The notes under the pieces are model-generated. The model was given only the letters and a program-made list of their open reading frames with translations, did not search any database and was not told the DNA's origin. From Candidatus Doudnabacteria bacterium (lineage in GTDB: Bacteria; Patescibacteriota; Doudnabacteria; UBA920; O2-02-FULL-48-8): a stretch of 64,000 nucleotides of DNA. The translations under genes were made by a program, and so were the position numbers. This document shows, piece by piece, positions 29,837-45,824 of this stretch (position 1 is the stretch's first letter; every line of letters begins with the position of its first letter). Location: the NCBI GenBank assembly GCA_016182875.1, contig JACPFQ010000010.1:1268-65267 (forward strand), read 5' to 3'.

Positions 29837-30139
29837 TTACTTATCATCTCTCCGTCGCAAGCGATTGATTTGTTTAACCATGAGAAAAACCGCAAAAGCG
29901 ACAATCAGGAAATTGATGACAGCGTTTAAAAAAGCGCCGTAGCGCAAAACCGCTTTTCCGGGCAGGCCCAGAGCCAGTTTGCTTAAATCCACATGCCCGG
30001 TCAGCGTGCTCAAAACCGGCGTGAATATGTCGTTGACCAAAGAATTGACAATGGTCGTGAATGCCGCGCCAATAATCACGCCTACCGCCAGATCAAGCGC
30101 GTTGCCTTTGACCGCGAACTCTTTGAACTCCTTCAGCAT
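29837..30139 (-). CDS. mscL: large-conductance mechanosensitive channel
   Basis: Start [27 protein letters not shown]. Confidence 0.85.
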
Positions 30140-30324
30140 TATTTCCTTTTTTTCGTGATTGCGTCGCGAACCACCAGCCCATGACTAGCCCTTTTGACCA
30201 GCACCCTTTGTCGTTCCTTCCATCCCAGGGCGCGGACAAGCGACGGCGGCAGGACCACGGCCAGCGAAGCTTTGCCCAAGCGAATCAGATGCTGGGCGGA
30301 TTTTCTTGGTTTTGATTTCGCCAT
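30139..30324 (-). CDS. AbrB/MazE/SpoVT-family DNA-binding protein
   Basis: [23 protein letters not shown] swapped-hairpin motif; 61 aa. Confidence 0.5.
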
Positions 30325-30476
30325 TTGGTTCCTTTCAAATTAGTTATACTTGTGCTTAACATTTTACTCCTTAGCTTATTGCTTGCCAAGTTTTTAATCA
30401 GTCTAATGTTTGGTGTAATTACACCATTTGTTAGACTAAACACGCCGATTCAAAATCCAAATCTTGAATCTTGCCC

Positions 30477-30504
30477 TACTGCAATACGTTCCCGTATTGC
30501 AGTA
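30477..30504. repeat. palindrome tactgcaatacg-ttcc-cgtattgcagta
   Basis: Identical to the 20275 copy and preceded by aatcttga, as at 57750. Confidence 0.7.
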
Positions 30505-30517
30505 CTACTCAAATTCC

Positions 30518-31792
30518 CTATTTAATTTTCCTCACCAGTCTCGACTCGTCTTTAGGCTTTTTATTCAAGACGAGGCGGACAATCCCCTTGTTGGCGTCGA
30601 CTTCGACCAAGTCTCCGTCCTTGAAAATCTTGGTCGCGAACTTAGTGCCGATGACGCAGGGTTTTTTCAGCTCTCTGGAAACAATTGCCGCATGGCAAAG
30701 CATGCCGCCTTCGTCCGTGACAATCGCGGAGGCTTTTTTAATTGCCGGTAACCATTGCGGGCGGGTCATGGAGGTAACAATAATTGATTTGTTCTTTACT
30801 GCTTTTATATTTTTAGCAGTCATCAAGATAACAACCTTTCCACTAGCTTTACCCGCTTGGGCAGTCGTCCCAGACAAAGTGTTGATTTTTGAAGAAATAT
30901 TTCCTTGCGGCCCTAACTCTTTCGCAGCGATTTTCTGTGCCTCTCTCCCGGAATACAGTAACCAGGTTTGATTCTTTAAAACTAAAACGTAAAAGCTTCT
31001 TCGCTTTTTTACTTCAACTTGGAGTAACTTCCAACTCCTCTTTACGCTTTGCAAGATTTCTTCAGGCCGATACCAGACCAGGTCTTTTTTTGGAATTTCG
31101 TTTTGTCTCACGATTTTTTCTAAAAATTTTTGGAATTTCGGAAAAGAATATTTAGTAGTTACTAATTCAGCAACTTCGTGCAAATAAAACCGCCATTCAA
31201 AATATTTTATTAATTCTTTAAACGCGGTCGAAGGCTTGAGCTTGTTTAACAATCTTAGCTTTTTCTCTACTAGCGCCTTATCCGGATGAAAAAACTCCTC
31301 AAGGTTGCTTGCGTTTATTACAGGATAAACAAGGGTAGCAAATAGCTCGTCACTTGTTCCATATCCAAATTTCAAAAGTTCTTTTTTCAACAGCAGCTCG
31401 AGCTCTGGCTGAGGTATGCAGTACGCCACTATCGCCCTTGCCTGGATATAAAGATTAAAATAATTTTTCAAAGATTCTATAATTTGATCTGGCTGATCTG
31501 GCGGTAACTGCTCGATGTGGTCAGTCAGCCTGATCAGTTGAGTTAATATACTGCAAGAACTCTTAAATAATCTTTTATATACTTTTGTTTTATAATCATT
31601 CTGGATAATTCGTAATTTTTTTGGGATTTCATTTGGTCCGAAATACATAACCGGCAGTTCGTGCTCCGCAACTATTAAAATCTCACCAATGCAATATTTG
31701 GTTCCAGATAAATTTGTGGCATACCCAAGAGTTTTGAGGTAACGCTCAAGCAAAGTTGCCTCCCGAGTAATCATTTTTTTCCAGTAGGTCAT
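30518..31792 (-). CDS. paralog 6: novel helical N-domain + C-terminal PEP-utilising phosphohistidine (swivel) domain
   Basis: C-terminus [28 protein letters not shown]...[11 protein letters not shown]. Confidence 0.8.
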   Translation of the reverse strand: MTYWKKMITREATLLERYLKTLGYATNLSGTKYCIGEILIVAEHELPVMYFGPNEIPKKLRIIQNDYKTKVYKRLFKSSCSILTQLIRLTDHIEQLPPDQPDQIIESLKNYFNLYIQARAIVAYCIPQPELELLLKKELLKFGYGTSDELFATLVYPVINASNLEEFFHPDKALVEKKLRLLNKLKPSTAFKELIKYFEWRFYLHEVAELVTTKYSFPKFQKFLEKIVRQNEIPKKDLVWYRPEEILQSVKRSWKLLQVEVKKRRSFYVLVLKNQTWLLYSGREAQKIAAKELGPQGNISSKINTLSGTTAQAGKASGKVVILMTAKNIKAVKNKSIIVTSMTRPQWLPAIKKASAIVTDEGGMLCHAAIVSRELKKPCVIGTKFATKIFKDGDLVEVDANKGIVRLVLNKKPKDESRLVRKIK

Positions 31793-32112
31793 AGTAACAA
31801 CTCTGCCGCTGTCCGAGCCTGTTTCTCTCCTTCACCAGTTAATTCCGCTTCCGCTCCCTCGCCTAGGGCCTGACCGTGCCTGAAAAAATAAGCATTAACT
31901 TCCCGGCCTTTAGGTTCTTCTTCTCTCGCCTCCTTAAATCTCGGCTCTCCCTCTCCCTCTCCAAATTTTCTTTCATTCATATATTAACCTTTCTTAATTA
32001 TTTTATCTTCCTCACAACCCCTCGATTCGCCCCTGTACCAGTCCGCCTCAGGCGAACAGTACAGGGCTTCGCTCGCTCTGTGCACTTTAGTACGGTCGTG
32101 TATTAAAGCCTG

Positions 32113-33375
32113 TTAATTTGCTCGTTTAAGTAATTTTACTATTCCCCGCTGCGCATCCACCTCGACCAAATCCCCTGTCTTAAATACTTGTGTCCCTATT
32201 TTGGTCCCTATAATACATGGGATTTTCATTTCCCGGGATACTATCGCTGCATGGGAAGTAATTCCACCTTCATCTGTCACAATGGCTTTAACTTTTTTCA
32301 AATATGGCACGGCTGCGGGCTGGGTTTCTGGAGTAATTAAGATCTCGCCTGATTTGATTCCTGAAAAATTATAGGCATCAGCAACGCGGGCTCGGCCAGT
32401 AACCCTACCTTTATTTGCAATTAACCCCGCAATTTTGGAAGTTCTACCGTTTAAATCCTGGATTGATTTTTTAAAGTCTTGAAGTTTGGGTCCAACAATA
32501 ATCTTAACTCCTTGAGACGCAAACATTAAACCGTAATCTTTCTGTCGCAATTTCAGAATTCTGCGATTAAACTTTCCGGAAATTAACTCTTCTGGGGTCA
32601 ATTGCCTGGCTGCTTCGTAACTTAATCCCTGAGCTTTTTTCATTAGCAAAGGTTTGAAATAATAGAAAAATTCACTAATTTTATACAGCCGCCAGTCACG
32701 GAAATGAATATATTCCTGCGCCATTGCAACTAATCGATCAATGCGAGGATTAATCTTTGTTTTTTGTGATTGCACGGCCTTAATTTGATTTTTCTTTGCT
32801 GATTTCCAATCAGCCTTGAATGTTTCGTAAGTCAACGGAGTTATGTCCATAACGTAAGAATTTATCCATGCATAATTTATGAATACCTTTTTAAATACTT
32901 CTGGGTTTGGCTTCTTAACTGCGCGCAAAGCTTGTTGGTATTTTTGGCGCATTAAGGGTTTCTTGCCAAGAGGAACTTTCTCAATTACCGGTTTGAGCTC
33001 TTCATTAATAACCAAATCAATCATAATCGGCAAATAGGTAGCTTGAAATGCCAAAGCCGCTTGATCGAATATCTGTTTGAGGTTTTGCTTGGTAGCATGT
33101 TTGGTATGCTTTGTGATGACGATAAGCTTTTCTGAATCACCTTTCATCTTTTTCAAGGCCCGATATGGCCAATCCGTCCCAAGTTTTTTTTTGATAGCTT
33201 GTAAAAGTAATTTAAGCTCTCGTTCTTCCACCCATAAACTACCCGAATGTCTAGCCCAATGTTTGAGATTGGGCAGACCAAAATAATCGCCGAATTCGCG
33301 TCGTAATGATTCCATAACCCAATAAACATACAAAATCGGATGATTACCGCGAGTAAAAAATCTTATCCATTTCAT
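32113..33375 (-). CDS. paralog 5: variable N-domain + PEP-utilising phosphohistidine domain
   Basis: C-terminus [28 protein letters not shown]...[11 protein letters not shown]. Confidence 0.8.
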   Translation of the reverse strand: MKWIRFFTRGNHPILYVYWVMESLRREFGDYFGLPNLKHWARHSGSLWVEERELKLLLQAIKKKLGTDWPYRALKKMKGDSEKLIVITKHTKHATKQNLKQIFDQAALAFQATYLPIMIDLVINEELKPVIEKVPLGKKPLMRQKYQQALRAVKKPNPEVFKKVFINYAWINSYVMDITPLTYETFKADWKSAKKNQIKAVQSQKTKINPRIDRLVAMAQEYIHFRDWRLYKISEFFYYFKPLLMKKAQGLSYEAARQLTPEELISGKFNRRILKLRQKDYGLMFASQGVKIIVGPKLQDFKKSIQDLNGRTSKIAGLIANKGRVTGRARVADAYNFSGIKSGEILITPETQPAAVPYLKKVKAIVTDEGGITSHAAIVSREMKIPCIIGTKIGTQVFKTGDLVEVDAQRGIVKLLKRAN

Positions 33376-33626
33376 TTTATTTTCCTCACAATCCCATTAT
33401 TCGCATCGACTTCCACCAAATCGCCGTCTTTTAATCTTTTATATTTACTATTCCTGTAAATCAAGCGGACTTTCGCGGTATCCTGTGTAATCCACTTTTG
33501 TTCTTCTTTCGTCTTGTAATACTTCTTGTTTGCGTAAAAATGACCGAAAATTTTAGCCTGTCCTTGTTTTCGATCAAAGTATATTTCCGCCAACTTATTA
33601 TTAACCATTGCAAAACACCACGGCAT
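33372..33626 (-). pseudogene. remnant of a further paralog (only the extreme C-terminal swivel-domain motif retained)
   Basis: Ends ...[20 protein letters not shown], identical in style to the paralog C-termini, and lacks the GG..HAAI core. Confidence 0.5.
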
Positions 33627-33638
33627 AGATATTTTTTA

Positions 33639-34055
33639 TTATTTTGTTAGATACTTATTCAAAAAATCACCTGGCAAAAGAATGGGAAACGACACGGCTC
33701 CCATCACCCTGGGCTGGATAAAATGCTTACGGTCTAAAGTTATAAAAAAATCGCAATTGGCTTTCATGGCCGCAGCAAGAATTACTGCATCAAATACATT
33801 GATTAATTTTTTAGCTTTTAAGATTGTTTTTTTATCTGGCTGGATTAAAACCGCATGCACAGAATCAAACAAAGCTAAAAAACTTTGAACTTTAACGGGA
33901 TATTTCTCGTTCAAATTCCTGGTAACTTCCTCGAAAACATCTGGCGAGCTGATTACCGGAAGCCTCTTATTTATGACTTGGCGAATAATTTCGGCTGACG
34001 CGCCTTGTTCAGAAAGACTCGCCGCTATCCAAACACTACTGTCTAAGAAAATCAT
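33639..34055 (-). CDS. vapC: PIN-domain toxin (VapC-like)
   Basis: Start MIFLDSSVWIAA plus conserved acidic residues; 138 aa, immediately downstream of the RHH gene. Confidence 0.7.
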   Translation of the reverse strand: MIFLDSSVWIAASLSEQGASAEIIRQVINKRLPVISSPDVFEEVTRNLNEKYPVKVQSFLALFDSVHAVLIQPDKKTILKAKKLINVFDAVILAAAMKANCDFFITLDRKHFIQPRVMGAVSFPILLPGDFLNKYLTK

Positions 34056-34057
34056 CT

Positions 34058-34330
34058 TTATTTAAAAAGATAAGGATAGCGTTCTTTTACCAATTCCGAT
34101 CGAATTCGCCTATAATCTTTTTCAATTTTTTTCCATAACCGGGCATCTTCTTTTTCGAGCTGAAGTAATTTTTTCTTTGGGATTTTTTTGCTTGCTTCTT
34201 CCAAATAACGGCGCAGTGCCGTGCGTAAAAGTTCTGAACGGGTCATATTCTGCTTTTGGGCTATTTTTTCCGATTCCCGCAGCATTTGAGGCGGTAGGGA
34301 AATAGTGACTAACGACGTATTACGCTTCAT
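34058..34330 (-). CDS. vapB: ribbon-helix-helix antitoxin (CopG/VapB-like)
   Basis: 90 aa with an RHH-like N-terminus (VTISLPPQMLRESEKIAQ); 3-nt spacing to the PIN gene. Confidence 0.6.
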   Translation of the reverse strand: MKRNTSLVTISLPPQMLRESEKIAQKQNMTRSELLRTALRRYLEEASKKIPKKKLLQLEKEDARLWKKIEKDYRRIRSELVKERYPYLFK

Positions 34331-34424
34331 ATAATTTATATGTTAATACTAAGTATTAACATTGTACTTAGCTAATTTATAGCTGTCAATATGCCTTTTC
34401 TATAACCTATTATATCTAAAATTA

Positions 34425-35873
34425 TCATCTGCCAACTTTTCTGACAATCCCCTTACTAGCATCGACCTCGACCAAATCCCCATCTTTGAGGACTTTGGTT
34501 GCTATTTTGGTGCCGACGATGCAAGGAACGCCCAGCTCGCGGGAAACTACCGCCGCATGAGACATTAGTCCGCCGACATCAGTGACAATTGCTTTAGCCT
34601 TGCGCATAGCAACTATATAGTCGGGTGAGGTCATGGGGGCGACCAAGATTTCTCCGGGTTTCATGTATTGGGCAAATTTCGGTGAATGCAGAATCCTAGT
34701 CCGCCCGCTAACCTTCTGTCCTGAATTAAAAGCCACTATTCCTTGGACTTCTTTGCCAGCATTTATTTCTTTCTTCGATTCCAAAGCCTTGAGGAAATCT
34801 TTTACTTTTTTGCCGTAAAAAAATCTGTAATCCTTGGGTGTTACCAAAATCATCGTCGAATTTTTCCTGTGCTTAAGTACGCGAGGACTGACCTTGGCCC
34901 CGGTTTGGAATAACCTTAACCACTCGGCGCAATCATAATACATCAACTGGTCAATGCTTAGGCCAAAAACCGGGCTGGCGAATTTATTAAACCTATCAAT
35001 GACATTGTGGGCCCGCCAGCTGGTGGCCTTGCGGTGGTCCTGCCACCAGATAGAAAAAGAAATATTACGCGCAGCGGCGACCAAGCTTTTTGGAACGTGA
35101 TATTTTTTTATAACTTGTCTTTTTCTTTTGGCGATCTCGCGGCGCGATGCCAAAATGTTTTGTATTTTTTCCTTCAGCTGCTGTTTGGAAAGCCTGCTCA
35201 CTTGCCTTAAAAAATATGTGTCGGGAAGGATTTGCGCTGTATAATAGCTATTTTCCACCCAATACCATTTGGAGGCGTAAACTTTCAATTTGGCGCGCAA
35301 GCCCTTTTTATTTTTAGCCGCTAAGGCAGTTTGGAGCAATTCCAGTTCGCTTTGTTGATGGAAGCTTGGTTTTGGAGAGGCCATAAGTATGCCAACTGTT
35401 TCTTCCATCTCGCTTGCTGGAACAAGGCCGCGAAGTTTCCTGCTTAAATATTCAGGTGAGGCAAAATTAGCCAGTTCTTGAACTAAAGCATAAACCCAAA
35501 GTTGAATCAAATAACGGTAAAATTTTTCAACGTAAGGCCTAAGCTGCTCAATATTTTTAAAGTTAGTGACATGCGATATCTCTCTTTTAAATTTTCTAAG
35601 GTTAAGCACATTGTCCCAGTACTTTTTCCACAAAATTTTCATTTTCCCAGTGGGAATAATCCAGCGATTCAGCGCGACCTCACCCCTTTTTTGCATCTCT
35701 GCTTTCTCCCAATAATACGCCATCTTGTCGTGGCCATAAATCCCGACATAAGTGGGCCAGGGCGCTTTGAATTTCATGCCGCTTGTGGCATTGGCCACTA
35801 TCCAAAACGACGGATACAAAAGCCTCCCATCTATTGGGCCCCACTGGTCAATTTCTTTTTTATGGTTAAGCAT
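34425..35873 (-). CDS. paralog 4: variable N-domain + PEP-utilising phosphohistidine domain
   Basis: C-terminus AIVTDVGGLMSHAAVVSRELGVPCIVGT...[11 protein letters not shown]. Confidence 0.8.
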   Translation of the reverse strand: MLNHKKEIDQWGPIDGRLLYPSFWIVANATSGMKFKAPWPTYVGIYGHDKMAYYWEKAEMQKRGEVALNRWIIPTGKMKILWKKYWDNVLNLRKFKREISHVTNFKNIEQLRPYVEKFYRYLIQLWVYALVQELANFASPEYLSRKLRGLVPASEMEETVGILMASPKPSFHQQSELELLQTALAAKNKKGLRAKLKVYASKWYWVENSYYTAQILPDTYFLRQVSRLSKQQLKEKIQNILASRREIAKRKRQVIKKYHVPKSLVAAARNISFSIWWQDHRKATSWRAHNVIDRFNKFASPVFGLSIDQLMYYDCAEWLRLFQTGAKVSPRVLKHRKNSTMILVTPKDYRFFYGKKVKDFLKALESKKEINAGKEVQGIVAFNSGQKVSGRTRILHSPKFAQYMKPGEILVAPMTSPDYIVAMRKAKAIVTDVGGLMSHAAVVSRELGVPCIVGTKIATKVLKDGDLVEVDASKGIVRKVGR

Positions 35874-35876
35874 GTG

Positions 35877-36743
35877 TTATTTACCCAGTCTAGCTTTTAA
35901 CCATTCCGTAATTTGTTGAGAAAATTGCGGCCATTCTGACTCTAGCATCAGCAAGTGCCCTGCTTTCATTTCGAGATAATCTCCTCTTAAAAACCTCGCT
36001 AGTTCCTGGCACTGCTGCGGGGAAACACGGTTGTCATCCGAAGCCCCAACAACTAAAATAGGACATTTTATTTTTTCCGGATTGATTGAAGGAGGTTTGC
36101 TATAAGCTTCAAAACGAGCCTGGTGTGACTCAAATCCCAACATTGGCTTGTATTTTTCATCATAGGCTGCTTCAAAGTCAGACGGAACCCGATCGCCAAA
36201 CCAGCTTAAAAAACTCGCTTTATCTCTTTTTATCATATCTCCCCTTGCAATTAATTCTTGAACTTTTGCTTCTTCTTCGGGAGTTGGCGCTTTCATCGGA
36301 AACTGAGATGGGAGTCCGGGTGTAAGCAAAATCAATGCGGCTGGCTTTTGGTCAGCGGCTTGCTCCATTGCAGTCAAGCCGCCGGCGCTACGGCCTACCA
36401 ATACTTGTTGATTGTAATTTAAGCCTTGCTGTGTTAAATCTTCACGCGCCCTGCGGATATCTTCGTTAAAATCCACCATGCTTCTACCTGCGAATTCTGC
36501 ATTAGGAAGTTCGCCCAGCCGCCCTTTAAGATTAACTGACATTGAATCAAAGCCATTGCGCCCGAAACTTTCCAAAACGGGCAGGCCACTTTTTGCAGTA
36601 AGACCTGATCCGGGAATGAAAATGGCAGTCTCCAGATAAAGTTTGGGCTCTGCTGGCAAAAATTCTGCTCTTAATCCGCCTACAATGATTTCTCTCGTAG
36701 GAATTTTGGGAGCATCAAATCGCCCGGAATCTTCTATGCTCAT
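35877..36743 (-). CDS. alpha/beta-fold hydrolase
   Basis: GRSAGG nucleophile elbow (GxSxG) with downstream D/H; 288 aa. Confidence 0.65.
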   Translation of the reverse strand: MSIEDSGRFDAPKIPTREIIVGGLRAEFLPAEPKLYLETAIFIPGSGLTAKSGLPVLESFGRNGFDSMSVNLKGRLGELPNAEFAGRSMVDFNEDIRRAREDLTQQGLNYNQQVLVGRSAGGLTAMEQAADQKPAALILLTPGLPSQFPMKAPTPEEEAKVQELIARGDMIKRDKASFLSWFGDRVPSDFEAAYDEKYKPMLGFESHQARFEAYSKPPSINPEKIKCPILVVGASDDNRVSPQQCQELARFLRGDYLEMKAGHLLMLESEWPQFSQQITEWLKARLGK

Positions 36744-37735
36744 TCTTTCTTTTCAAACCTACTCTTTGCTACTTCAGCTAACTCTCTAACTTTTTGCCAG
36801 TCCAAATAAACTCTTTTGCCTTTAAATAATTTGGCCCGCTCAGGGTCTGTAAACTCAAACTCCGCTTTGGTGTCTTTGTCAAAATCATCTAAGCTTCGCG
36901 GATCGCCCATTCTGGTGTCGCGGGAAAGTTTGATGCGAAACGCTGTGGCCTGTTTGGTGAACCCGCCGATTTCGTCCACGTCATCAAAGCCGACTTTCCG
37001 CTCCCCGGTTTGCGGATCTTCTACGACCAAAGCCTGTTTATACAAAGATTCCGCAAACAGTCCGCTGCCGACTATGGGAATCGCTTTTGACTCACCGCCC
37101 TTCACGCCTCTTCTGGAAAGCTCAATTGCGTGCATCAACTCATTGGCTTCGTTTTCGGCCAAAGGACGGGCAATATCTTCATTGGCTAGCGCTTCTCGCA
37201 ATCCTACTATTTGCGCCTTTTCCCTATTTGCGGCTCGAAATTCCGCGTCAGATTTGAATCTTTCCTGGTCCTCCGGCGACAACTCTAAAACCAAACGATT
37301 GAGCTTAGTGTTGATCAAATCTTTGTATTGCTTCAACACCGGATTTAGGCCAGCGCCAGCATAATCAACGCCTTTGCCGCGCCTTGCTCCTTTTACTTTG
37401 CCGGTTTTGCCTTTGACCGGTGAGGCGTCTTCTCGCTCACCGAACTTTTCACTCCCGGCCAATATATCTTCTCCGGTTTCACCATGTCTGGGCTCATCTC
37501 CTCCCCGAGGATGAACCAAAGTCACTTCTTCGGGATAATTAGCCGCCCCATACTCTTTTGCTCGGGACTTGCCCACAGGCGTTAAGTCCGTAGGGTCATC
37601 AAACTTTTGCCGGCTGCCATCGGCAAAGGTGATATCCATCGGCCCGCCGAACCTACTGCCGTGGCGCGTAAGGTCGATGTAGGTCGTCGCGATAAACTGT
37701 TTCTCCTCCTCAAGATTGCGCATTTCTTCATTCAT
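36740..37735 (-). CDS. hypothetical protein, possible histidine-phosphatase-like (RHG motif near N-terminus), charged/low-complexity middle
   Basis: LTRHGSRFGGP motif; otherwise unrecognised. Confidence 0.35.
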   Translation of the reverse strand: MNEEMRNLEEEKQFIATTYIDLTRHGSRFGGPMDITFADGSRQKFDDPTDLTPVGKSRAKEYGAANYPEEVTLVHPRGGDEPRHGETGEDILAGSEKFGEREDASPVKGKTGKVKGARRGKGVDYAGAGLNPVLKQYKDLINTKLNRLVLELSPEDQERFKSDAEFRAANREKAQIVGLREALANEDIARPLAENEANELMHAIELSRRGVKGGESKAIPIVGSGLFAESLYKQALVVEDPQTGERKVGFDDVDEIGGFTKQATAFRIKLSRDTRMGDPRSLDDFDKDTKAEFEFTDPERAKLFKGKRVYLDWQKVRELAEVAKSRFEKKE

Positions 37736-38322
37736 AGTTTTTGTAACTCCTTTTTTAATTGTTCAACATTTTTATAAATTAGAATTTTCATTGCCAATTG
37801 CTCGGCACCCTCGATTCTGTCCGGACGATCATCGATATACAAAGCTTCGCTTCCGGAAACGCCGGCTTGTTGGAGTGCATATTCGTAAATTTTCACATCT
37901 GGCTTGCGGATATGCAGATAACTGGATACAGCTTTAATAGTAAAAATTTCACCCCAATGATACTGCTGCCAAAAATAATCAAACCATTCTTTGGGATTAT
38001 TGGAAATAACGCCCAGGGTGAAGCGGCTCTTGAGAACCGCCAAGAATCCCAGCAGTTCTCTGTTCGGGGAAAAATTTTTAAGAATCAATTTCTTTAAATC
38101 CTCGACGTCCAGCGCTTGCTTGAAGTCTTCCGCAGTTTTTTGAAAGTACTCCTGCTCGCTAATATTGCCCAAAGTGAAGTCCTTCCACCACACTCCATCA
38201 TGAGCTGAAGCGTAAAGCAAGCCAGGTTTAATCCCATGAGCCGCCTCGTATTCCTTAATCCCGGCTGTAAAACCTTCTCTCACTAAAACATTACCGGAAT
38301 CAAAAAAAATTGCCTTGATCAT
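37732..38322 (-). CDS. HAD-superfamily hydrolase (subfamily IA-like)
   Basis: Motif I IFFDSGNVL and motif IV YIDDRPD. Confidence 0.65.
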   Translation of the reverse strand: MIKAIFFDSGNVLVREGFTAGIKEYEAAHGIKPGLLYASAHDGVWWKDFTLGNISEQEYFQKTAEDFKQALDVEDLKKLILKNFSPNRELLGFLAVLKSRFTLGVISNNPKEWFDYFWQQYHWGEIFTIKAVSSYLHIRKPDVKIYEYALQQAGVSGSEALYIDDRPDRIEGAEQLAMKILIYKNVEQLKKELQKL

Positions 38323-39815
38323 TTTGCTCTTTCCAGAATCCGGACGATTCCTTTTTGCGCATCCACTTCCAGCAAGTCATCGTCGTGGATAATCCGGGTT
38401 CCATTTTGGGTGGCGATGACGCACGGAACTCCCAATTCGCGGGAGACAATCGCGGCATGCGAAGACAAGCCTCCCTGGTCCGCGACAATTGCGACCGCTT
38501 TTTCCATGGCCGGCACAAAATCCGGAGTGGTGAACTGCGCCACCAGGATGTCGCCCCGCTTGACCTTGCCTATTTCATGTTTGTCCAGGCAGACCCTTGC
38601 TCGACCCCGGATCATGCCGCCCAAACACGCCATCCGTCCGTGAATCTCTTCGATTTGCTCAACTTTGACAAAATACTTTTTTTCTAATTTTTTAATTTCG
38701 GCAGGATCAGTAATCAACTTGGTTTCGGCATTCCGCACTACCATGGCGTAATCTTTAAATCTCCTTTGCATCTCAGCGCTATTGGGCAGCGGCTTGCCCC
38801 GGAGTGCGCCAAACATTTCCGGAGTGGAGACTTCCATAATCCAGTCAGGGTTGAATTTGGCTCGTCGGGCGATCTCGGCGTACATGAAGCTTGCGCCATA
38901 ATCGGCGTTGAAAAACGCTTCTACGCGGCGGTTGCGGACGTAGGAATGGAGTTTTGCCTGGCCAATGATCTTTTGGAAATCTTTTTTCGGCCTAATTTTC
39001 TCAATGGCGTCTTTGTAATCGTCCCCGACTTTCTTCTCGGAAGCGAAGTAGATTAGGTCATCAATCGACTGGCCTGCGGAAATTTGCCTTTTTATCTCTT
39101 TGAGCCTGTCAATTATGTCCTTGTAAGAGTAGGGCTTGCTCGTGGCTAGGCCGCGGTTGATGTAGGCAAATTTATCCAGATGCTTTTGAATTTTTTGCTT
39201 AAACTTCGACGGCAAGCTGTTTAAATCAGCTTTGGCTTTGAAAAGTTCTTTGGCCAACAGCGTCAGCTTCCACCGTTCTTCGGCCACGTCGGTCATTTCT
39301 TTGGGATCGGTAAAGACCAATACATAATGGCGAAAATTTGGATTATCGCCTTTGATGCAATCAAGCAATTTTTCCTCAATTGCTTTTTCAAAATATTCAT
39401 CCAACGGGTATTGGGCATACCAAGGGCAGGCCAACTCTCGATACTGCTCCAGCAAATCTTTCAAAACGCCTGCCATGTGTCGGTTGGTTTTGCTCTGCCA
39501 ATCTGTCTTTTTGAGCTCAAAACCCCGATTGTAAAGCTTCTCCGACTTTTTCAACTCGCGCACGCAGTATCTTTCAAACCAGCCGTCATTTTTCTTGGGG
39601 TGCCCGGTTATTTCCGCTTCAAAGGGATTATATTCCTCCGCCGGCCAGTAGATCATGTGGTGCAGGTAAGCTCTGTTGGCCAAAACCGTTCTGATTTGAG
39701 CCTTCGCCGCGTTTTCCGGATTGAACGAAGAGTTAATCATGAAGCGCAAAAAGATCGGAAGCTTGCCCGACGGCTTGATCCTCCATTTGCCCGAATACAT
39801 TACTGCCCCGGCCAT
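38319..39815 (-). CDS. paralog 3: variable N-domain + PEP-utilising phosphohistidine domain
   Basis: C-terminus [28 protein letters not shown]...DDLLEVDAQKG. Confidence 0.8.
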   Translation of the reverse strand: MAGAVMYSGKWRIKPSGKLPIFLRFMINSSFNPENAAKAQIRTVLANRAYLHHMIYWPAEEYNPFEAEITGHPKKNDGWFERYCVRELKKSEKLYNRGFELKKTDWQSKTNRHMAGVLKDLLEQYRELACPWYAQYPLDEYFEKAIEEKLLDCIKGDNPNFRHYVLVFTDPKEMTDVAEERWKLTLLAKELFKAKADLNSLPSKFKQKIQKHLDKFAYINRGLATSKPYSYKDIIDRLKEIKRQISAGQSIDDLIYFASEKKVGDDYKDAIEKIRPKKDFQKIIGQAKLHSYVRNRRVEAFFNADYGASFMYAEIARRAKFNPDWIMEVSTPEMFGALRGKPLPNSAEMQRRFKDYAMVVRNAETKLITDPAEIKKLEKKYFVKVEQIEEIHGRMACLGGMIRGRARVCLDKHEIGKVKRGDILVAQFTTPDFVPAMEKAVAIVADQGGLSSHAAIVSRELGVPCVIATQNGTRIIHDDDLLEVDAQKGIVRILERAK

Positions 39816-39818
39816 AAT

Positions 39819-40397
39819 TTAGAATTTAAATTCTTTTGAATGCATTAAAAAATATTTCAATTCTTCGATAAAAGGTTCTGTAAGCCTCATCTTTTTCTCG
39901 TTATAAAGCTGCCAGACTTTTCTTAAATCAAATGCTTTAAAATTCTTAATTTCCTGCCGGTTTGGTTTGACTTGTCCGTCATGTTTCCCAATGTACCAAT
40001 ATACCATTATTCCGCCGATTGATAAACCAGGCATCGGAATAATCTTTATCAGTTTAAGAGGAACCTGAATGCCTAACTCTTCCTTCAACTCCCTCAAAGC
40101 ATCGGCCAAAATCTGTTTTTTTGTTCGTGCGCCCGACCTTACAAATCCGGAGCATGCTGATTGCCAATGAAGCGGCTGGATGTCTTTCGTTCGGCTTCTT
40201 TGCTGGAGCCAAAATTTTCCCTGCGAGTTTTTTAGCCAGATGTGGGCTGAGCGGCGCATCAATTTCCGGTTCTGCAAGAATTTTTTTCTCGTAGCCCTGC
40301 CAATGACCTTATTGCGCAAATTCACGATATCGTGCAGCTCACCCATCGGGTCAGAGCTGTCTTTGAGATTAATCAGTTTTACTCTCTTTAATTTCAT
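39819..40397 (-). CDS. Nudix hydrolase
   Basis: Nudix box SGFVRSGARTKKQILADALRELKEELGI (Gx5Ex7REUxEExGU). Confidence 0.65.
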   Translation of the reverse strand: MKLKRVKLINLKDSSDPMGELHDIVNLRNKVIGRATRKKFLQNRKLMRRSAHIWLKNSQGKFWLQQRSRTKDIQPLHWQSACSGFVRSGARTKKQILADALRELKEELGIQVPLKLIKIIPMPGLSIGGIMVYWYIGKHDGQVKPNRQEIKNFKAFDLRKVWQLYNEKKMRLTEPFIEELKYFLMHSKEFKF

Positions 40398-41007
40398 TTT
40401 CTAGAAGCTGATTTAAATCGCCGATTTCAAAAAACTGATGCTCGGTCCACTTAAGACTGGAATCATTGCTATTTATGTTATAAACCCGGGTTTTAAAATT
40501 TGCGCCCTCATCCTGTAAATGCTTTGCGGCATCCAGGAAAAACCGGCAATTTTCACGGCTGTTATCCGTATAAACTATTGTATCATAACCGGCAACAAGC
40601 TTCTTAACCAGAATGTCTTTAAGCATCGCTTCTGTTTTGATATTCGTGTTCCCGTAGTCAAAAGTGCTATGGACTTCTCTGATGTAATCGCGCGGGTCAA
40701 TGCCATACTTTCTTACGATCTGCTCAGCCCGCCAATCCATCTGTTCGGGGTTGCCAGTCGTGAATACCGCATTGTTTTTGGTCCAACCCAAAACTTCCTC
40801 GAAATGTTCGGCTAGATCAAGATCAAACAACCCCTTCCGGTACGGCCGTTCGTAAGCGTACTCATAATCTCTGGGGCTAATGGTCTTTAGATCGAATCCG
40901 AGCGACTCAATATAAGCGTCAAAGTTTGGGAAGCCGCTTTTTCGGCTGTCCCATCGCTCCAGAAACAAAGTGTCCGCCAAATCCCAAAGGTACAAAGTCT
41001 TACTCAT
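40369..41007 (-). CDS. HAD-like hydrolase / nucleotidase-like (weak)
   Basis: N-terminal LYLWDLADTLF, a DxDxT-like motif. Confidence 0.35.
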   Translation of the reverse strand: MSKTLYLWDLADTLFLERWDSRKSGFPNFDAYIESLGFDLKTISPRDYEYAYERPYRKGLFDLDLAEHFEEVLGWTKNNAVFTTGNPEQMDWRAEQIVRKYGIDPRDYIREVHSTFDYGNTNIKTEAMLKDILVKKLVAGYDTIVYTDNSRENCRFFLDAAKHLQDEGANFKTRVYNINSNDSSLKWTEHQFFEIGDLNQLLENEIKESKTD

Positions 41008-41013
41008 TGCAAA

Positions 41014-42495
41014 TTATTTTATTTTCCTCACCCACCCATGATTGGCATTGACCTCGACTATGTCGCCGTCTTTCAAAACTTCGGTGGCGATCTTGGTGCC
41101 GATGATGCAGGGGATGCCCAGCTCGCGGCTGACAATCGCGGCGTGCGAAGTGATGCCTCCTTCGTTGGTGACGATTGCCGCGGCTTTCTTCATGGCCACC
41201 ACGTAATCCGGCCGGGTCATGACCGCCACCAAAATATCGCCGGCCCTGACTTTGCCCACTTCCGAAGAAGATTTAAGCACCTTCACCGGCCCAATGGCCT
41301 TGCCCGTGGATGCCGAAAGCCCGCGGAAGTCATCGACTTCTTCCTGTTTTCTGCGGCCGAACATGGCAGATTTAAGAGCCTCAACGTCGCGGCCGGTGAA
41401 AAATTTGGCATACTGCCTCGTGGCAATCACCGCCGAACCTTTCATGCGCTCCTGCAAAATTTTTCGGCTCGGATTTCCGGACTTAATAATGTCCGGTATT
41501 TCCGAGGGTCCGGCGTACTTTAATTCATCTAAAGTATAGTGTGCCTTTTTGGCGATGGCAGACAGAATTTGACAGCCCATGTGGATATTCAGATAGGTAG
41601 CGCGCTTGCGCTGGTCCTGCCATGCCGTAAAGTCATCGGAAATTTGCAGCAGGGTCCGCAAAAAAACCGAAAGCTTGTACTGCCTAAATAATTTTTGCTT
41701 CGCTATTTTATTTCTTGCCGGTGTTTCTTCAATCTGCCGCAGCTCTTCTGCCAAATTCTTTTTGCTTTGCTTCCAGGCTTTAATTTCCTGTTCAAACTCG
41801 GCAACGCTGAGCACGTGGGCGCGAATGTAATTATTACTGGTCCAGAAAAATTTCTTCTGATGATCTTTGAGCGAATCTTTGGACTTGCCCAAAATTATTT
41901 TAAGCAGGCTGATCTCAGCTTCACTTATGAAAGATTGTCTGGTGGGAGCGGAAGCGACGGCGAAAATCTTGGCCAAATCCGATGTTTTGAGATTTCTGCC
42001 ATATTTTGTTACTTCTTTTTTCAGCATGTCGGCCACCAGCTCATCCGTGCCCAAAGCAAAGTGGTCGATGATTGCCGAGGAAGTGAAGCGCTTGACTCCA
42101 GCGATATGATAGCGCTCCCAAGCTTGCGCCAAGGAGGCTTTGGATAACTTTTTCAAATCAGCCTTTTGCAGTTTCTTAAACAGTCTTTCAAAAATTTGTT
42201 CGTCCTTCTTCCATAGGCGCATAAGCTTGCGGGAAAAGTCGGGGTCTTTTTTGGCAAGCTTAAGAATTACGCGAACGCCGCGCTTTATATCTTTCTGGTC
42301 CAGGTACCAGTCAACTTTTCCCCGGTCAAAAAAGCAGACGCGCACATCCGCCTCGGTTCCAGCCGGCTTGCGGGGTTCTTTTTTCGGCTCTGCCTCCCAA
42401 ATAAACCCGATAAACATTGGTGAGCCATCAAACCGCTGATGGTACCATTCTCGGTTCTTCAATTGGCCTAAATTATAGCTTTTTAATAGTTTCAT
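41014..42495 (-). CDS. paralog 2: variable N-domain + PEP-utilising phosphohistidine domain
   Basis: C-terminus [28 protein letters not shown]...[11 protein letters not shown]. Confidence 0.8.
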
Positions 42496-43940
42496 TTCTT
42501 AGCTTTCGTTAATATTTTAACCATTCCTAAATTTGCATCAACTTCCACCAAGTCCCCAGTTTTTAGAACTTTCGTGGCGACCTTAGTCCCGATTATGCAG
42601 GGAATTCCAAGTTCCCGCGAGACAATCGCCGCATGCGATGTAATCCCACCCTCATCTGTAATAATAGCCGAGGCTTTATGCATAAACGGCACAAAGTCCG
42701 GCCGGGTCATGGTCGTGACCAGTATTCTGCCGTCGATAAATTTTTCCTTATGAGGATTGATGACGACGCAGACCTGGCCCTTGAAGCGGCGGACAGGTGC
42801 GGAGGCAACAAAGCCCCAAAACGACTGAACCTGCCTGGTGCGGAAGCGATCAAAAATTGCCTGGGCCTGCTTGCCAACATAAATTTTTTCGTCCAATCCT
42901 GTTTTTGTCAAACTCGTGACGATCACCGAAAACCTTCTGCGCTGTTTGGGAATTCTCGAATCCAGCTTAACTTTTTTTATTAATAAATTTACAGCTTCTT
43001 CTGGGGTATAATAATTAAGCAAGTCTTTGGGAACTTTTGTTCTTCTGATGATTTCATCCAAAAGGGAATCAACATAATAAATCATATGCAGAGCGCCGAA
43101 CTTTCTTTCGTCAATCCAGCGGCTCATGATTCGCAAAAGTTCAAATGTCTTGGCCATTCTTGGAGTCAAACTAAATTCTGCCAAAAGCTGAGTTTGATGC
43201 TTTTTTAGATTGAGGGCTTTACTTTGCAAGCCCCTTATCTCTCGTTGAACCTGTTCTCGATTTTTTGACTTCAATAATATTTTGGCCTGATTCTGGAAAT
43301 AGTTCTTATCCAATGCTTTGTGGCCAGTATAGTTGTTCTGCGACCAATGATATTTCTCGGCAAAGGCTTTGAAGTTTGGTTTTCTCTTGAGGCACTCTTG
43401 GAGAAACTCCAGCCTTTCCCGTTCAATAAATGAAAGCATGGGATATGTTGAAAGAATCAAACTGGCTTCCGCCGGAACGTTTTGATCCAGTAATTCTTGA
43501 TCAGAATAAATGTCAGCAGACTCGGGAATAATAGAATGAGTGAAATGGAGGACGGATAAATCATAAACCTCTCGATAGACAGCGGCCAATTTTCTATCAG
43601 AAAATTTTTTTCTTCCCGTGACCGCCCATTCTCCTCTCTGGATCAGCTGTTTCTGGACAGCTTTGTATTTTTTGTACCAAAGCAGAACTTTGCGCGGATT
43701 GCGCAGGTACAGATTTAGAATTTTATGGAACTGCCTGAGCTTTTCTTGCTCTGAAGTTTTTTCCAGAACTAGGTCACTTTTATAAAGAGCCAGGCAGATG
43801 CTCAAAAATTTCTGCTTGTAAACGTGGCTTTGCATGATGAAACATCGCCAAGCACAGATAGTCAACTGATAGTTGCTGGGCATGTCCTCACTCCACCAGG
43901 TGTCTTTTTTGATTTTCCCGATAATTTGTTCAAAGATCAT
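42492..43940 (-). CDS. paralog 1: variable N-domain + PEP-utilising phosphohistidine domain; ATGA-coupled to the upstream ATP-grasp gene
   Basis: C-terminus [28 protein letters not shown]...[11 protein letters not shown]. Start at MIFEQ overlaps the stop of 43937..44872. Confidence 0.75.
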
Positions 43941-44872
43941 AACGTAGTGATTGGCCGAGATTGAGTGATGTAAAATTTGCCGCGAACAAAAGCCCATTCT
44001 ATGTCTTGAGGTTTTTTGTAGTGTTTCTCAATGCCTTTGCAAATTTTTGCCAGCTCCACGATTTGCTTGCCGGTTAGCTTCTGCCTTCCGCCGGCTTTGG
44101 CTGATAATTTTTTGTGCAAGTTTTTATTTCCTGCCCGCACGATCATCATGCTTTGCTCCGAGACATTTATATCCAGAATCGAAAGGTCGTCTTTGTGGAC
44201 CACGTAAGTATCCGGGGTTACTGAACCGGAAACTATGGCTTCGCCCAAACCAAACCCGGCCTCAATCACCATTTGATTGCGGTCTTTAGTGACCGGGTGC
44301 ACGGTGAAGCAAATGCCGGAAATTTCCGACTGGATCATGGCCTGCACGACCACGGCGACGGAAACCGGCTTTTTATGCAGTTTCTTTTCGAAGCGATAGA
44401 AAATCGCGCGCGGCGTGAACAGCGAGCTCCAGCACTTTTGCACGTTTTTCAAAAGGTCTTTTTCGGTCGTGTTCAAATACGTTTCAAGCTGGCCGGCCCA
44501 AGCGGCGGTCGAGCTATCTTCGGCCGTGGCCGAGGAGCGGACAGCTACAAACTTGCTCTTAAGCCGCCGAAAGTGACTTTTAACCTCTTCGGCCACATCT
44601 TTGGGCATTTTAGCTTTCTCAATCAACCCTCGAATATCTTCCGATGCTTCCTCGACCGAATTTATATCCTTATGGTTGACCTTCTTCAAAGCCGCCTCGA
44701 CTTCGGCGTCCAAATCCGTCTCCTCCAGGAACTGGTCAAATGCGGAGGCAACAACCACAAAACCCGGCGGAACCGTAATACCCGCCTGAGTCATTTCCCC
44801 AAGCGAAGCGCCTTTGCCCCCGGCGATTGACACATCTTTTTTTGATAGTTGCCTGAATATTTTGACGAACAT
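43937..44872 (-). CDS. stand-alone PPDK_N-type ATP-grasp nucleotide-binding domain protein (PEP synthase / rifampin phosphotransferase N-domain-like)
   Basis: [10 protein letters not shown]...VPPGFVV...[11 protein letters not shown]...DIEWAF...ITQSRP matches the PEP/pyruvate-binding ATP-grasp signature; 311 aa. Confidence 0.8.
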
Positions 44873-44873
44873 T

Positions 44874-44892
44874 GCTATACGTTCAGTATAGC
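44874..44892. promoter_or_regulatory. perfect palindrome gctatac-gttca-gtatagc abutting the ATP-grasp gene start
   Basis: 7-5-7 inverted repeat 2 nt upstream of the start codon. Confidence 0.35.
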
Positions 44893-45004
44893 ATTTTCCG
44901 TAGTATTTGTTTGCGCTTCTTCGTTGACTTTTGTGAGCCCGATAATTGAAACTGCCAAAGTAAAGCCGCTATGACGATAAGCCAAGGACCTAGTTTATAT
45001 TGGT

Positions 45005-45427
45005 TCAAATCTTGAAAAATTCGCGGGCCTGAAGCTCATCATCTTTCATCTGGTCTATAAGCGCTTCTTTGGTTTCGAACTTCTGGTTATCGCGTATCTT
45101 TTTGATAATCTCGACTTCCAGTTCACAGCCATAAATCTCCTGGCTAAAATCAAGGATATGAACCTCGACCAAGGTTTTGGTTTCGTCGAAGGTTTCCGCC
45201 TTGCCTATAAAAATCAGCGCAGGGAGGCCAGTGTTTTTGAAAAGCTTGGCATGCGGCAGCAGCTTGCGCAAAAACAGCGGCGGGAGTTTGCCGCCGGTGA
45301 TATTTTTTACTAACCCAAGATAGATGCCCTCTGGTAACTCTATTTTGGCATCCAAATTCGCCGTTGGGTAGCTAAGTCGCTTACCACGGCCGAGGTGTTT
45401 GATGACTTTACCTGAAATACTTGTCAT
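45005..45427 (-). CDS. riboflavin kinase
   Basis: Contains KVIKHLGRGKRLSYPTANLD, a flavokinase motif. Confidence 0.7.
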   Translation of the reverse strand: MTSISGKVIKHLGRGKRLSYPTANLDAKIELPEGIYLGLVKNITGGKLPPLFLRKLLPHAKLFKNTGLPALIFIGKAETFDETKTLVEVHILDFSQEIYGCELEVEIIKKIRDNQKFETKEALIDQMKDDELQAREFFKI

Positions 45428-45428
45428 G

Positions 45429-45824
45429 TTATTTGCTGTTCGAACGAAGCTGAGAACTTTTATAAATACTCGGCCTAAAAGCCTTCAGCCGAACCACTTT
45501 CGCGATTTTTTTGAGCTGATTCATGCTCACATAAGGCATCTGGTCATAACCAAGCGCAATTACATCCGGCTTCTCTTTACGAATATGCGGCCAGGGATTT
45601 TTTAGTCCACCCAAAACCACTTTATCTATAAACGGTAATTTTTTAAGCGCGGCGGTTCTTGTTTTTTCGCTCTGTGAAGTTTTATGCCTCTTAACCTTTC
45701 TAACGTTTGCGTCTCTGGCAACCGAAACCACCAGATAGTCACCAAGCTTTTTCGCCTGCTTCAAAAAATCTACATGCCCCGGGTGCAGTAAATCAAATAC
45801 TCCAAAGACCATGACTTTTTTCAT
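45429..45824 (-). CDS. cytidylyl/adenylyl-transferase-like (HxGH) protein, probable FMN adenylyltransferase partner of riboflavin kinase
   Basis: Contains VFGVFDLLHPGHVDFL, a (T/H)xGH nucleotidyltransferase motif. Adjacent to, and 2 nt from, the riboflavin kinase gene. Confidence 0.5.
   Translation of the reverse strand: MKKVMVFGVFDLLHPGHVDFLKQAKKLGDYLVVSVARDANVRKVKRHKTSQSEKTRTAALKKLPFIDKVVLGGLKNPWPHIRKEKPDVIALGYDQMPYVSMNQLKKIAKVVRLKAFRPSIYKSSQLRSNSK

Follow-up and report, generated by a model that had tools for sequence, protein, structure and literature searches.

A stand-alone ATP-grasp gene followed by six swivel-domain partner genes in a Candidatus Doudnabacteria contig: a probable small-molecule dikinase system with one shared subunit

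We analyzed a 64,000-nucleotide stretch (the window) of contig JACPFQ010000010.1, from a metagenome-assembled genome of Candidatus Doudnabacteria in the candidate phyla radiation (CPR; locus tags HYV13_04015 to 04040). A 14-kb cluster in the window joins one gene for a stand-alone ATP-grasp protein to six genes for proteins that end in a phosphohistidine swivel domain. All cluster genes lie on the minus strand. Reading from the ATP-grasp gene (43937..44872, 311 aa), the co-directional swivel genes, referred to here as partners, are partner 1 (42492..43940, 482 aa), partner 2 (41014..42495, 493 aa), partner 3 (38319..39815, 498 aa), partner 4 (34425..35873, 482 aa), partner 5 (32113..33375, 420 aa), and partner 6 (30518..31792, 424 aa). 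An earlier note, made from the letters of this DNA alone, had placed the genes at these coordinates, and they hold. All six partner genes are intact open reading frames (ORFs); matching orthologue lengths were checked for partners 2 and 3. The NCBI starts for these two genes lie too far downstream (HYV13_04030, 402 aa, and HYV13_04015, 445 aa, respectively), and orthologue alignments back 493 and 498 aa. The stretch that runs from the ATP-grasp gene through partner 4 is a tight operon in which neighbors overlap by 4 nt or are separated by no more than 6 nt, the exception being a 29-nt overlap (40369-40397). The gene order is identical in an independent assembly (Logan SRR12113420) over the part covered, and the cluster is therefore not an assembly artefact.

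The 311-aa protein is a complete ATP-grasp domain and nothing else. PF01326 (PPDK_N) spans residues 15-310 (E 6.8e-102), with no second domain. Compared with PDB sequences, the protein matches phosphoenolpyruvate (PEP) synthase (8a8e, 2.9e-75), rifampin phosphotransferase (RPH; 5hv1, 1.3e-63 over residues 3-311), and HpeI (9goj, 9.5e-49). Its best 120 homologues are all from CPR, are ~311 aa long, contain PF01326 only, and are 68-84% identical; at the sequence level the protein thus appears to be conserved like a housekeeping gene. We propose that it is the shared charging subunit of the cluster. Partner 1 is translationally coupled to it: the TGA stop of the ATP-grasp gene overlaps the ATG of partner 1 (ATGA), which makes them two separate genes and not a fusion. 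A frameshifted fusion of the two was considered and is ruled out by this clean TGA/ATG overlap together with the 311-aa stand-alone form, which is conserved beside varying neighbors.

Each partner carries PF00391 at its extreme C-terminus with E-values of 1e-23 to 3e-27 (3.2e-26 for partner 1, 3e-27 for partner 4, 2.3e-25 for partner 5, and 6.1e-25 for partner 6), and the catalytic His is invariant across all six. The domain assignments of the earlier note, one ATP-grasp domain alone and six co-directional proteins with an intact swivel His, are thus borne out, as is its impression that the N-terminal domains are mutually divergent: mean identity between paralogs is 53% for the swivels versus 17% for the N-terminal parts (300-385 residues). 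No Pfam or NCBIfam model covers the N-terminal parts of the six partners. With the swivel removed they nonetheless remain homologous. Partners 1, 2, and 4 match one another at 1e-11 to 1e-14 (partner 1 against partners 2 and 4 at 6e-12 and 1e-11; partner 4 against partners 1 and 2 at 1e-11 and 1e-14), partner 1 matches partner 6 at 5e-7, partner 4 matches partner 5 at 4e-4, and partner 2 matches partner 3 at 1e-3. Judged by these similarities, the N-terminal domains of the partners belong to a single superfamily.

The earlier note had also proposed that predicted structures of these domains be compared with RPH. AlphaFold2 models of partners 2 and 3, built with ~40 homologues each, reached pLDDT 90.9 and pTM 0.87 (partner 2) and pLDDT 93.8 and pTM 0.90 (partner 3). 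In Foldseek searches, Listeria RPH was the sole solved structure to align with the two models past the swivel (E 9e-14, TMq 0.58), at a sequence identity of only 15-16%; the remaining matches were restricted to the ~100-residue swivel. In partners 1, 5, and 6, RPH-type NCBIfam models extend past the swivel by 100-200 residues on its upstream side, with alignments that span residues 182-417 of partner 5 and 220-410 of partner 6. From the RPH-only fold match (partners 2 and 3), the upstream alignments of the RPH hidden Markov models (HMMs; partners 1, 5, and 6), and the mutual homology of the domains, we conclude that the N-terminal domains represent the RPH substrate-binding domain in a compact and deeply diverged form. 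The view that they belong to no recognized family accordingly stands with respect to Pfam and NCBIfam models and falls with respect to fold, which is RPH-like in partners 2 and 3. Within the partner-2 family, W292, Q293, D294, R296, and K297 are invariant and lie ~25 residues before the segment HMM-aligned to RPH 700. The PEP/pyruvate TIM barrel (PF02896) was absent from all seven cluster proteins in a Pfam scan, and a phmmer search with the archaeal PpsA C-terminal domain gave no match in the 64-kb window or the CPR loci examined. A split PEP synthase is ruled out, as no PEP-binding domain is present in either.

The six partners differ widely in how far they are conserved. Partner 2 belongs to a widely conserved CPR orthogroup with >100 relatives at 50-69% identity and partner 3 to another with >100 relatives at 57-75% identity, and both orthogroups span many CPR classes. 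Among the matches listed, relatives of partner 1 are only 35-45% identical, those of partner 4 are 35-50% identical, and none reaches 35% for partners 5 and 6, which are lineage-specific. Clustering of the N-terminal domains in the sample of loci described below, at 35% identity, gave 95 clusters from 142 proteins and recovered orthologues for partners 2 and 3 only. Conserved swivels and a conserved ATP-grasp protein beside diverged binding domains make up the pattern of a hub.

Other genomes with ATP-grasp-only and swivel-bearing genes, for which the earlier note had suggested a survey, are numerous. A scan of species-representative genomes, which also returned archaeal PEP synthases, yielded 80 loci across CPR that were analyzed by ORF and HMM scan; they come from Doudna-, Falkow-, Wolfe-, Buchanan-, Moran-, Uhr-, Curtiss-, Peregrini-, Kuenen-, Nomura-, and Portnoybacteria and from Paceibacterota. 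A stand-alone ATP-grasp gene is present in 69 of the 80. Of the 30 loci with full 10-kb flanks, 26 hold at least one swivel-only gene (counted at 300 aa or more) and 19 hold at least two, with a maximum of seven; in these loci the swivel-only genes are always on the same strand as the ATP-grasp gene, and the swivel is always C-terminal. On one 496-kb CPR contig (L006/L002), at least 16 partner genes come after a single ATP-grasp gene, and together they take up ~32 kb. Partner copy number ranges from 0 to at least 16. In six loci (L048, L055, L061, L067, L075, and L089) the ATP-grasp, binding domain, and swivel are joined naturally in one three-domain protein (662-794 aa), and such fusions constitute Rosetta-stone evidence that the separate proteins work together. 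Same-strand adjacency across CPR and these fusions support a functional coupling of the ATP-grasp subunit to its partners. Several loci (L010, L022, L028, L049, L056, L060, and others) have CPR-type ATP-grasp genes and arrays under titles such as 'uncultured Gammaproteobacteria', 'Rhizobium sp.', or 'Bdellovibrionales'; genomes so titled are probably mislabeled bins.

A profile of the six N-terminal domains matched 3371 clusters at 50% identity, 1558 of them at E<=1e-10. Most of these proteins are ~490 aa long and have the swivel motif, and almost none contains an ATP-grasp domain. Seven proteins of 983-2648 aa (P0244, P0247, P0260, P0265, P0275, P0324, and P0364) have two to four tandem copies of the N-terminal domain and may be real multi-unit polyproteins or read-through calls under a recoded stop codon.

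Swivel domains also occur in other settings within these loci. Stand-alone swivel proteins of 100-124 aa that retain the His (GGITSHP...) are encoded next to the ATP-grasp gene (L025 2408-2731), ~1-2 kb upstream of it (L019 8049-8372, L023 8609-8932, L024 8830-9147, and L030 8570-8902), or next to a partner gene (L090 7624-7998), and may be free phosphocarriers. HAD-swivel fusions of 307 and 311 aa are found at L036 7895-8818 and L050 7750-8685, and one partner-3 orthologue is fused to its downstream HAD (P0447, 696 aa). By their domain make-up, the HAD-swivel and partner-3-HAD fusions suggest a direct functional link from a phosphohistidine carrier to HAD-type proteins.

The closest characterized systems are the two-component small-molecule dikinases HpeHI, CreHI, and phenylphosphate synthase PpsAB, in which HpeI, CreI, and PpsB are stand-alone ATP-grasp proteins and HpeH, CreH, and PpsA combine a rifampin-binding-like domain with a swivel (PMC12167813). 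Both components are required; the second phosphotransfer needs only HpeH, and the two components do not form a stable complex. The known examples are 1:1 pairs that act on phenolic substrates in the aromatic catabolism of Actinobacteria and Proteobacteria (PMC12167813). The window shows the same split into a stand-alone ATP-grasp protein and RPH-like-domain/swivel partners, again with adjacent genes, but differs in its 1:6 ratio (plus a remnant), which rises to at least 1:16 in the related contig. It also differs in having no aromatic-catabolism genes near the cluster, in its CPR setting, and in its accessory phosphatase-like genes, and the partners (420-498 aa) are shorter than HpeH-type proteins (~600 aa, catalytic His at 581). 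The PRK08296 NCBIfam models (~570-630 aa), which bear the name 'hypothetical protein' and which we take to represent proteins of the HpeH/PpsA type, cover only the swivel and immediate linker of the window partners (50-101 bits versus cut-offs of 578-730). The earlier note had considered the arrangement undescribed. With PpsAB, CreHI, and HpeHI already on record, the split itself is not new, and what appears undescribed is the one-to-many ratio. We found no paper on one-to-many ATP-grasp/swivel dikinases in CPR, the nearest being a resistome survey that lists rph-like matches in CPR as antibiotic-resistance-like genes (PMC8651080).

RPH itself is a single chain of ATP-grasp, binding, and swivel domains, in a superfamily of small-molecule dikinases with a rapidly diverging middle domain (PMC4844700). 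The window partners keep its order of binding domain then swivel, and the same conversion of ATP to AMP, Pi, and a phosphorylated substrate is predicted for them, but where RPH (PDB 5FBS/5FBT/5FBU/5HV1) is one 860-aa chain the window has its ATP-grasp as a separate gene and a binding domain ~100 residues shorter. The RPH models NF041857 and NF000283 are not reached (296 bits for the ATP-grasp protein and 52-67 bits for the partners, versus 999), and nothing in the sequence or family comparisons suggests rifamycin binding by the window partners. The window ATP-grasp and swivel are closest to archaeal-type PEP synthase (8a8e; 2.9e-75 and 4.9e-29), with which they have a sequence motif in common; they differ from PEP synthase and pyruvate phosphate dikinase (PPDK) in the missing TIM barrel, in the C-terminal rather than central swivel, and in the RPH-like nature of the extra domain. 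PigC, RedH, and HapC likewise combine an ATP-grasp with a swivel and phosphorylate a small molecule to activate it, although as single chains of ~880 aa in pigment biosynthesis; prodigiosin ligase NCBIfam models match the window ATP-grasp at 1e-70 and the swivel at ~1e-19, all far under the family cut-offs. A single phosphoryl donor that serves many specificity components through phosphohistidine also recalls enzyme I (EI) and HPr of the phosphotransferase system (PTS), and the window swivel is homologous to the EI N-terminal domain. Unlike the PTS, the window system has a predicted ATP donor, by way of the ATP-grasp, in place of PEP, has no HPr or EII, and has its specificity domains fused to the carrier.

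We consider it fairly probable that the locus is a hub-and-spoke version of the two-component small-molecule dikinases, with one ATP-grasp subunit and many partners. If the system works as RPH and HpeHI do, its one ATP-grasp protein of 311 aa would bind ATP and pass the beta-phosphate to the catalytic His on the swivel of whichever partner docks, with release of AMP and Pi. The swivel would then return to the N-terminal helical domain of the same partner, a compact domain of the RPH rifampin-binding type, and a small molecule bound there would be phosphorylated. Six diverged binding domains would in this way give six substrate specificities to one ATP-binding subunit. We infer the in-trans charging by one shared subunit, the small-molecule acceptors, and the distinct substrates from these characterized relatives.

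Partner 3 (38319..39815) heads a three-gene module. It is followed by a HAD-superfamily hydrolase (37732..38322, minus strand, 196 aa; PF00702 2.2e-12, PF13419 5e-12) and a divergent histidine-phosphatase-like protein of 331 aa (36740..37735, minus strand). A HAD of ~200 aa and then a 330-360-aa protein follow partner 3 in the window, L002, L092, and L093, and in L091 a 336-aa protein comes directly after the partner-3 orthologue; the module is thus seen in five loci from separate assemblies. The 331-aa protein has no Pfam match, even at E=10, and is placed solely by an orthologue and by common motifs; it has a clear homologue in L002 (361 aa, 7.7e-109). The family, with members in the window, L002 (15987-17072), L091 (7508-8518), L092 (8101-9162), and L093 (7937-8989), has TRH[GA] and LTxxG motifs (TRHG...LTxxG in the window), and a MAFFT alignment shows RH[GA] and LTxxG in the L091, L092, and L093 proteins. 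The L091 member passes PF00300 (His_Phos_1) at 27.8 bits against a cut-off of 21.7. The second catalytic His is apparently missing from the window and L002 copies, which read GSGLF versus THG in the others. On this gene-order evidence, partner 3 likely works in a module with the HAD and the histidine-phosphatase-like protein.

The other interleaved genes are more particular to the window. The earlier note had seen HAD phosphatases, Nudix and alpha/beta hydrolases, and a VapBC-type pair among the partners, and all were recovered by Pfam except a second HAD. That protein (40369..41007, minus strand, 212 aa) has no Pfam or NCBIfam match, even at E=10; it looks like a HAD variant from its motif-I-like DLADTL, in which Asp+2 is replaced, and its homologues sit inside arrays in L027 and L080. 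Loss of Asp+2 is frequent in this company. The HAD at 37732-38322 has a DSG motif I without Asp+2, and in the set compared (the two window proteins and the HADs of L002, L007, L016, L017, L024, L036, L065, and L070) the array-associated HAD-like proteins mostly do not have this acid/base residue (DSG, DYYG, DFNG, DAYG, DLAGT), while the L092 and L093 HADs retain DxD. The Nudix hydrolase (39819..40397, minus strand, 192 aa; PF00293 3.5e-11) was not recurrent in the other arrays examined, and the alpha/beta hydrolase (35877..36743, minus strand, 288 aa; PF12697 1.8e-10) had no counterpart in the other loci examined.

The distal part of the cluster has a lower GC content (0.39-0.42 at 30000-34000 versus ~0.46-0.47 over 36-42 kb). 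This stretch holds partners 5 and 6, a ribbon-helix-helix (RHH) antitoxin (34058-34330; PF01402 9.6e-8) with a PIN toxin (33639-34055; PF13470 8.6e-10), a decayed paralog, and a histidine-phosphatase fragment, all on the minus strand. The RHH/PIN pair was not found in the other arrays examined. The decayed seventh partner, already recognized as such in the earlier note, is an 84-aa ORF (33372..33626) whose translation ends in a swivel-domain tail; it has no Pfam match at E=10, yet 41 loci have swivel proteins that it matches. A 63-aa ORF (31789..31980), located between partners 5 and 6, corresponds to the N-terminal fragment of a histidine phosphatase, with motifs (YFFRHGQA...LTGEG) that align with the 331-aa family; an ATGA joins the stop of this ORF to the partner-6 start.

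The locus could instead be a resistance or detoxification battery, with the same biochemistry and another physiological role. As an RPH-like kinase, each partner would then inactivate its own antibiotic or xenobiotic out of those that a CPR cell encounters as an episymbiont. The RPH fold, the extremely diverse binding domains (142 proteins in 95 clusters), and the variation in copy number from 0 to at least 16 are all compatible with this, as are the decayed paralog, the toxin-antitoxin insertion, and the lower-GC distal part with the lineage-specific partners 5 and 6; the rph-like CPR matches have, moreover, been listed as antibiotic-resistance-like (PMC8651080). We nevertheless regard a resistance battery as unlikely, since partners 2 and 3 keep 50-75% identity over many CPR classes, the ATP-grasp subunit is conserved in a housekeeping manner, no partner reaches the RPH family cut-offs, and the HAD and histidine-phosphatase-like neighborhood of partner 3, kept in five loci, is pathway-like and unlike drug inactivation. 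The conserved orthogroups and this phosphatase-like neighborhood counter a purely xenobiotic or antibiotic role, which the earlier note had named as one example next to a metabolite-phosphorylation repertoire, and the note's description of an actively evolving accessory locus does not fit an arrangement that is widespread in CPR and in which partners 2 and 3 form conserved orthogroups. Because these orthogroups are conserved, the partner-3 module resembles a pathway, and the hub is kept much as a housekeeping gene would be, a metabolic role is likely. Partners 2 and 3, at least, would phosphorylate or activate metabolites that are salvaged or belong to a pathway. Variable or xenobiotic substrates may be those of partners 5 and 6, the lineage-specific pair in the distal part. 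An anti-phage defense system was dropped as a candidate, as PADLOC defense models gave no match to ten proteins of the cluster.

A relay to proteins would assign the ATP-grasp the part of enzyme I, with the swivel proteins passing phosphate to a HAD-like Asp or to histidine-phosphatase-like proteins for regulation or phosphomutase-type chemistry. The 100-124-aa swivels near ATP-grasp genes or arrays in six loci, the fusions of HAD to swivel (L036, L050) and to partner 3 (P0447), the missing Asp+2 in many array-associated HADs, and the resemblance of RPH subdomains to PTS components (PMC4844700) lend themselves to such a scheme. It is nonetheless quite improbable in our view, because each of the six window proteins has a large, family-specific, conserved helical domain of the RPH substrate-domain fold, as in ligand-binding catalytic domains, and because the characterized relatives all phosphorylate small molecules (PMC12167813, PMC4844700). 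The earlier note had allowed for PEP-synthase C-terminal pieces or pseudogene debris. Some local decay is real, as the remnant at 33372-33626 and the histidine-phosphatase fragment at 31789-31980 attest. That the cluster as a whole consists of fragments of ordinary genes, whether a split or decayed PEP synthase, PPDK, or RPH or an assembly artefact, is refuted by six intact ORFs, with orthologue lengths that match for partners 2 and 3, by the 311-aa ATP-grasp-only form that is the CPR norm, by the absence of PEP-utilizers_C from the window and the CPR loci searched, by the second assembly that reproduces the gene order where it covers it, and by two structure models that are complete, high-confidence folds; we give it almost no credence.

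Several observations weigh against a single shared charger with small-molecule acceptors. The contig is only ~70 kb, so that a second ATP-grasp gene may lie elsewhere in the genome, and L020 has two ATP-grasp genes within one locus. The stand-alone swivels and HAD-swivel fusions may mean that some phosphate flows to proteins and not to small molecules. The conserved W-Q-D-x-R-K motif of partner 2 is suggestive of the catalytic Arg-Glu..Lys of RPH (Arg666-Glu667...Lys670) by position only. Lone partner-2 orthologues more than 10 kb from any ATP-grasp gene also exist, as in L001, where no ATP-grasp gene lies within 10 kb of the orthologue. In that Kerfeldbacteria contig (L001 8258-11482), a CBS-domain protein and an ArsB/CitMHS/Na-sulfate-symporter-type transporter precede the lone partner-2 orthologue, with a 3-nt gap between.

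Upstream of the cluster, a perfect 8-bp inverted repeat, TGCTATAC-N5-GTATAGCA (44873-44893), directly adjoins the ATP-grasp start codon and may be an operator or translation-control hairpin. Promoter and terminator counts over 29.5-45.5 kb were not above shuffled expectation, and transcription units were therefore not assigned; the top-scoring promoter-like site (11/12) lies at 34389-34361, upstream of the RHH gene. Two kinds of gene recur beside or within arrays, a riboflavin kinase in 7 loci and a CTP_transf_like nucleotidyltransferase in 4 (window 45005-45824, minus strand; L088 12848-14265; L002 18682-19107; L012, L017, L020, L048, L062, L064, and L070), and the array of L088 is additionally separated from the ATP-grasp gene by riboflavin synthase and lumazine synthase. 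The arrays may be functionally linked to flavin metabolism, or the recurrence may be a matter of shared synteny. An Rfam search of the whole window found three tRNAs only; neither the cluster nor the flavin genes had a riboswitch nearby. A large GGDEF signaling protein flanks the cluster in the window (27443-29743, minus strand, where an EAL domain is also present) and in the unrelated CPR contig L088 (15991-17476).

CPR (Patescibacteria) genomes are tiny, and their metabolism has mostly been inferred from missing functions; despite this small size, 14 kb of the window and ~32 kb of another CPR contig are given to these arrays. A large share of the partner-family genes is annotated just as 'PEP-utilizing enzyme', 'PEP synthase', or 'hypothetical', so metabolic reconstructions can wrongly score a gluconeogenic PEP synthase as present. 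A more far-reaching and rather doubtful extension is that CPR run an ATP-driven, PTS-like phosphohistidine hub, in which a conserved ATP-grasp charger would load binding-domain-swivel enzymes, stand-alone swivels, and HAD-swivel fusions, replacing many conventional kinases and phosphorylating, and so trapping or activating, host-derived metabolites such as cofactor precursors, nucleosides, and sugars. Seen as dikinases with a shared subunit, the partners define a domain superfamily of thousands of clusters without a Pfam model and supply a directly testable biochemical model of one charger and many specificity subunits, for which the conserved module of partner 3, HAD, and histidine-phosphatase-like protein offers a route to substrates. 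The two-component dikinase family would extend from aromatic catabolism to a new organizational principle and, if the proposed hub is real, the N-terminal superfamily (at least 3371 clusters at 50% identity) would be a major unrecognized kinase repertoire of CPR.

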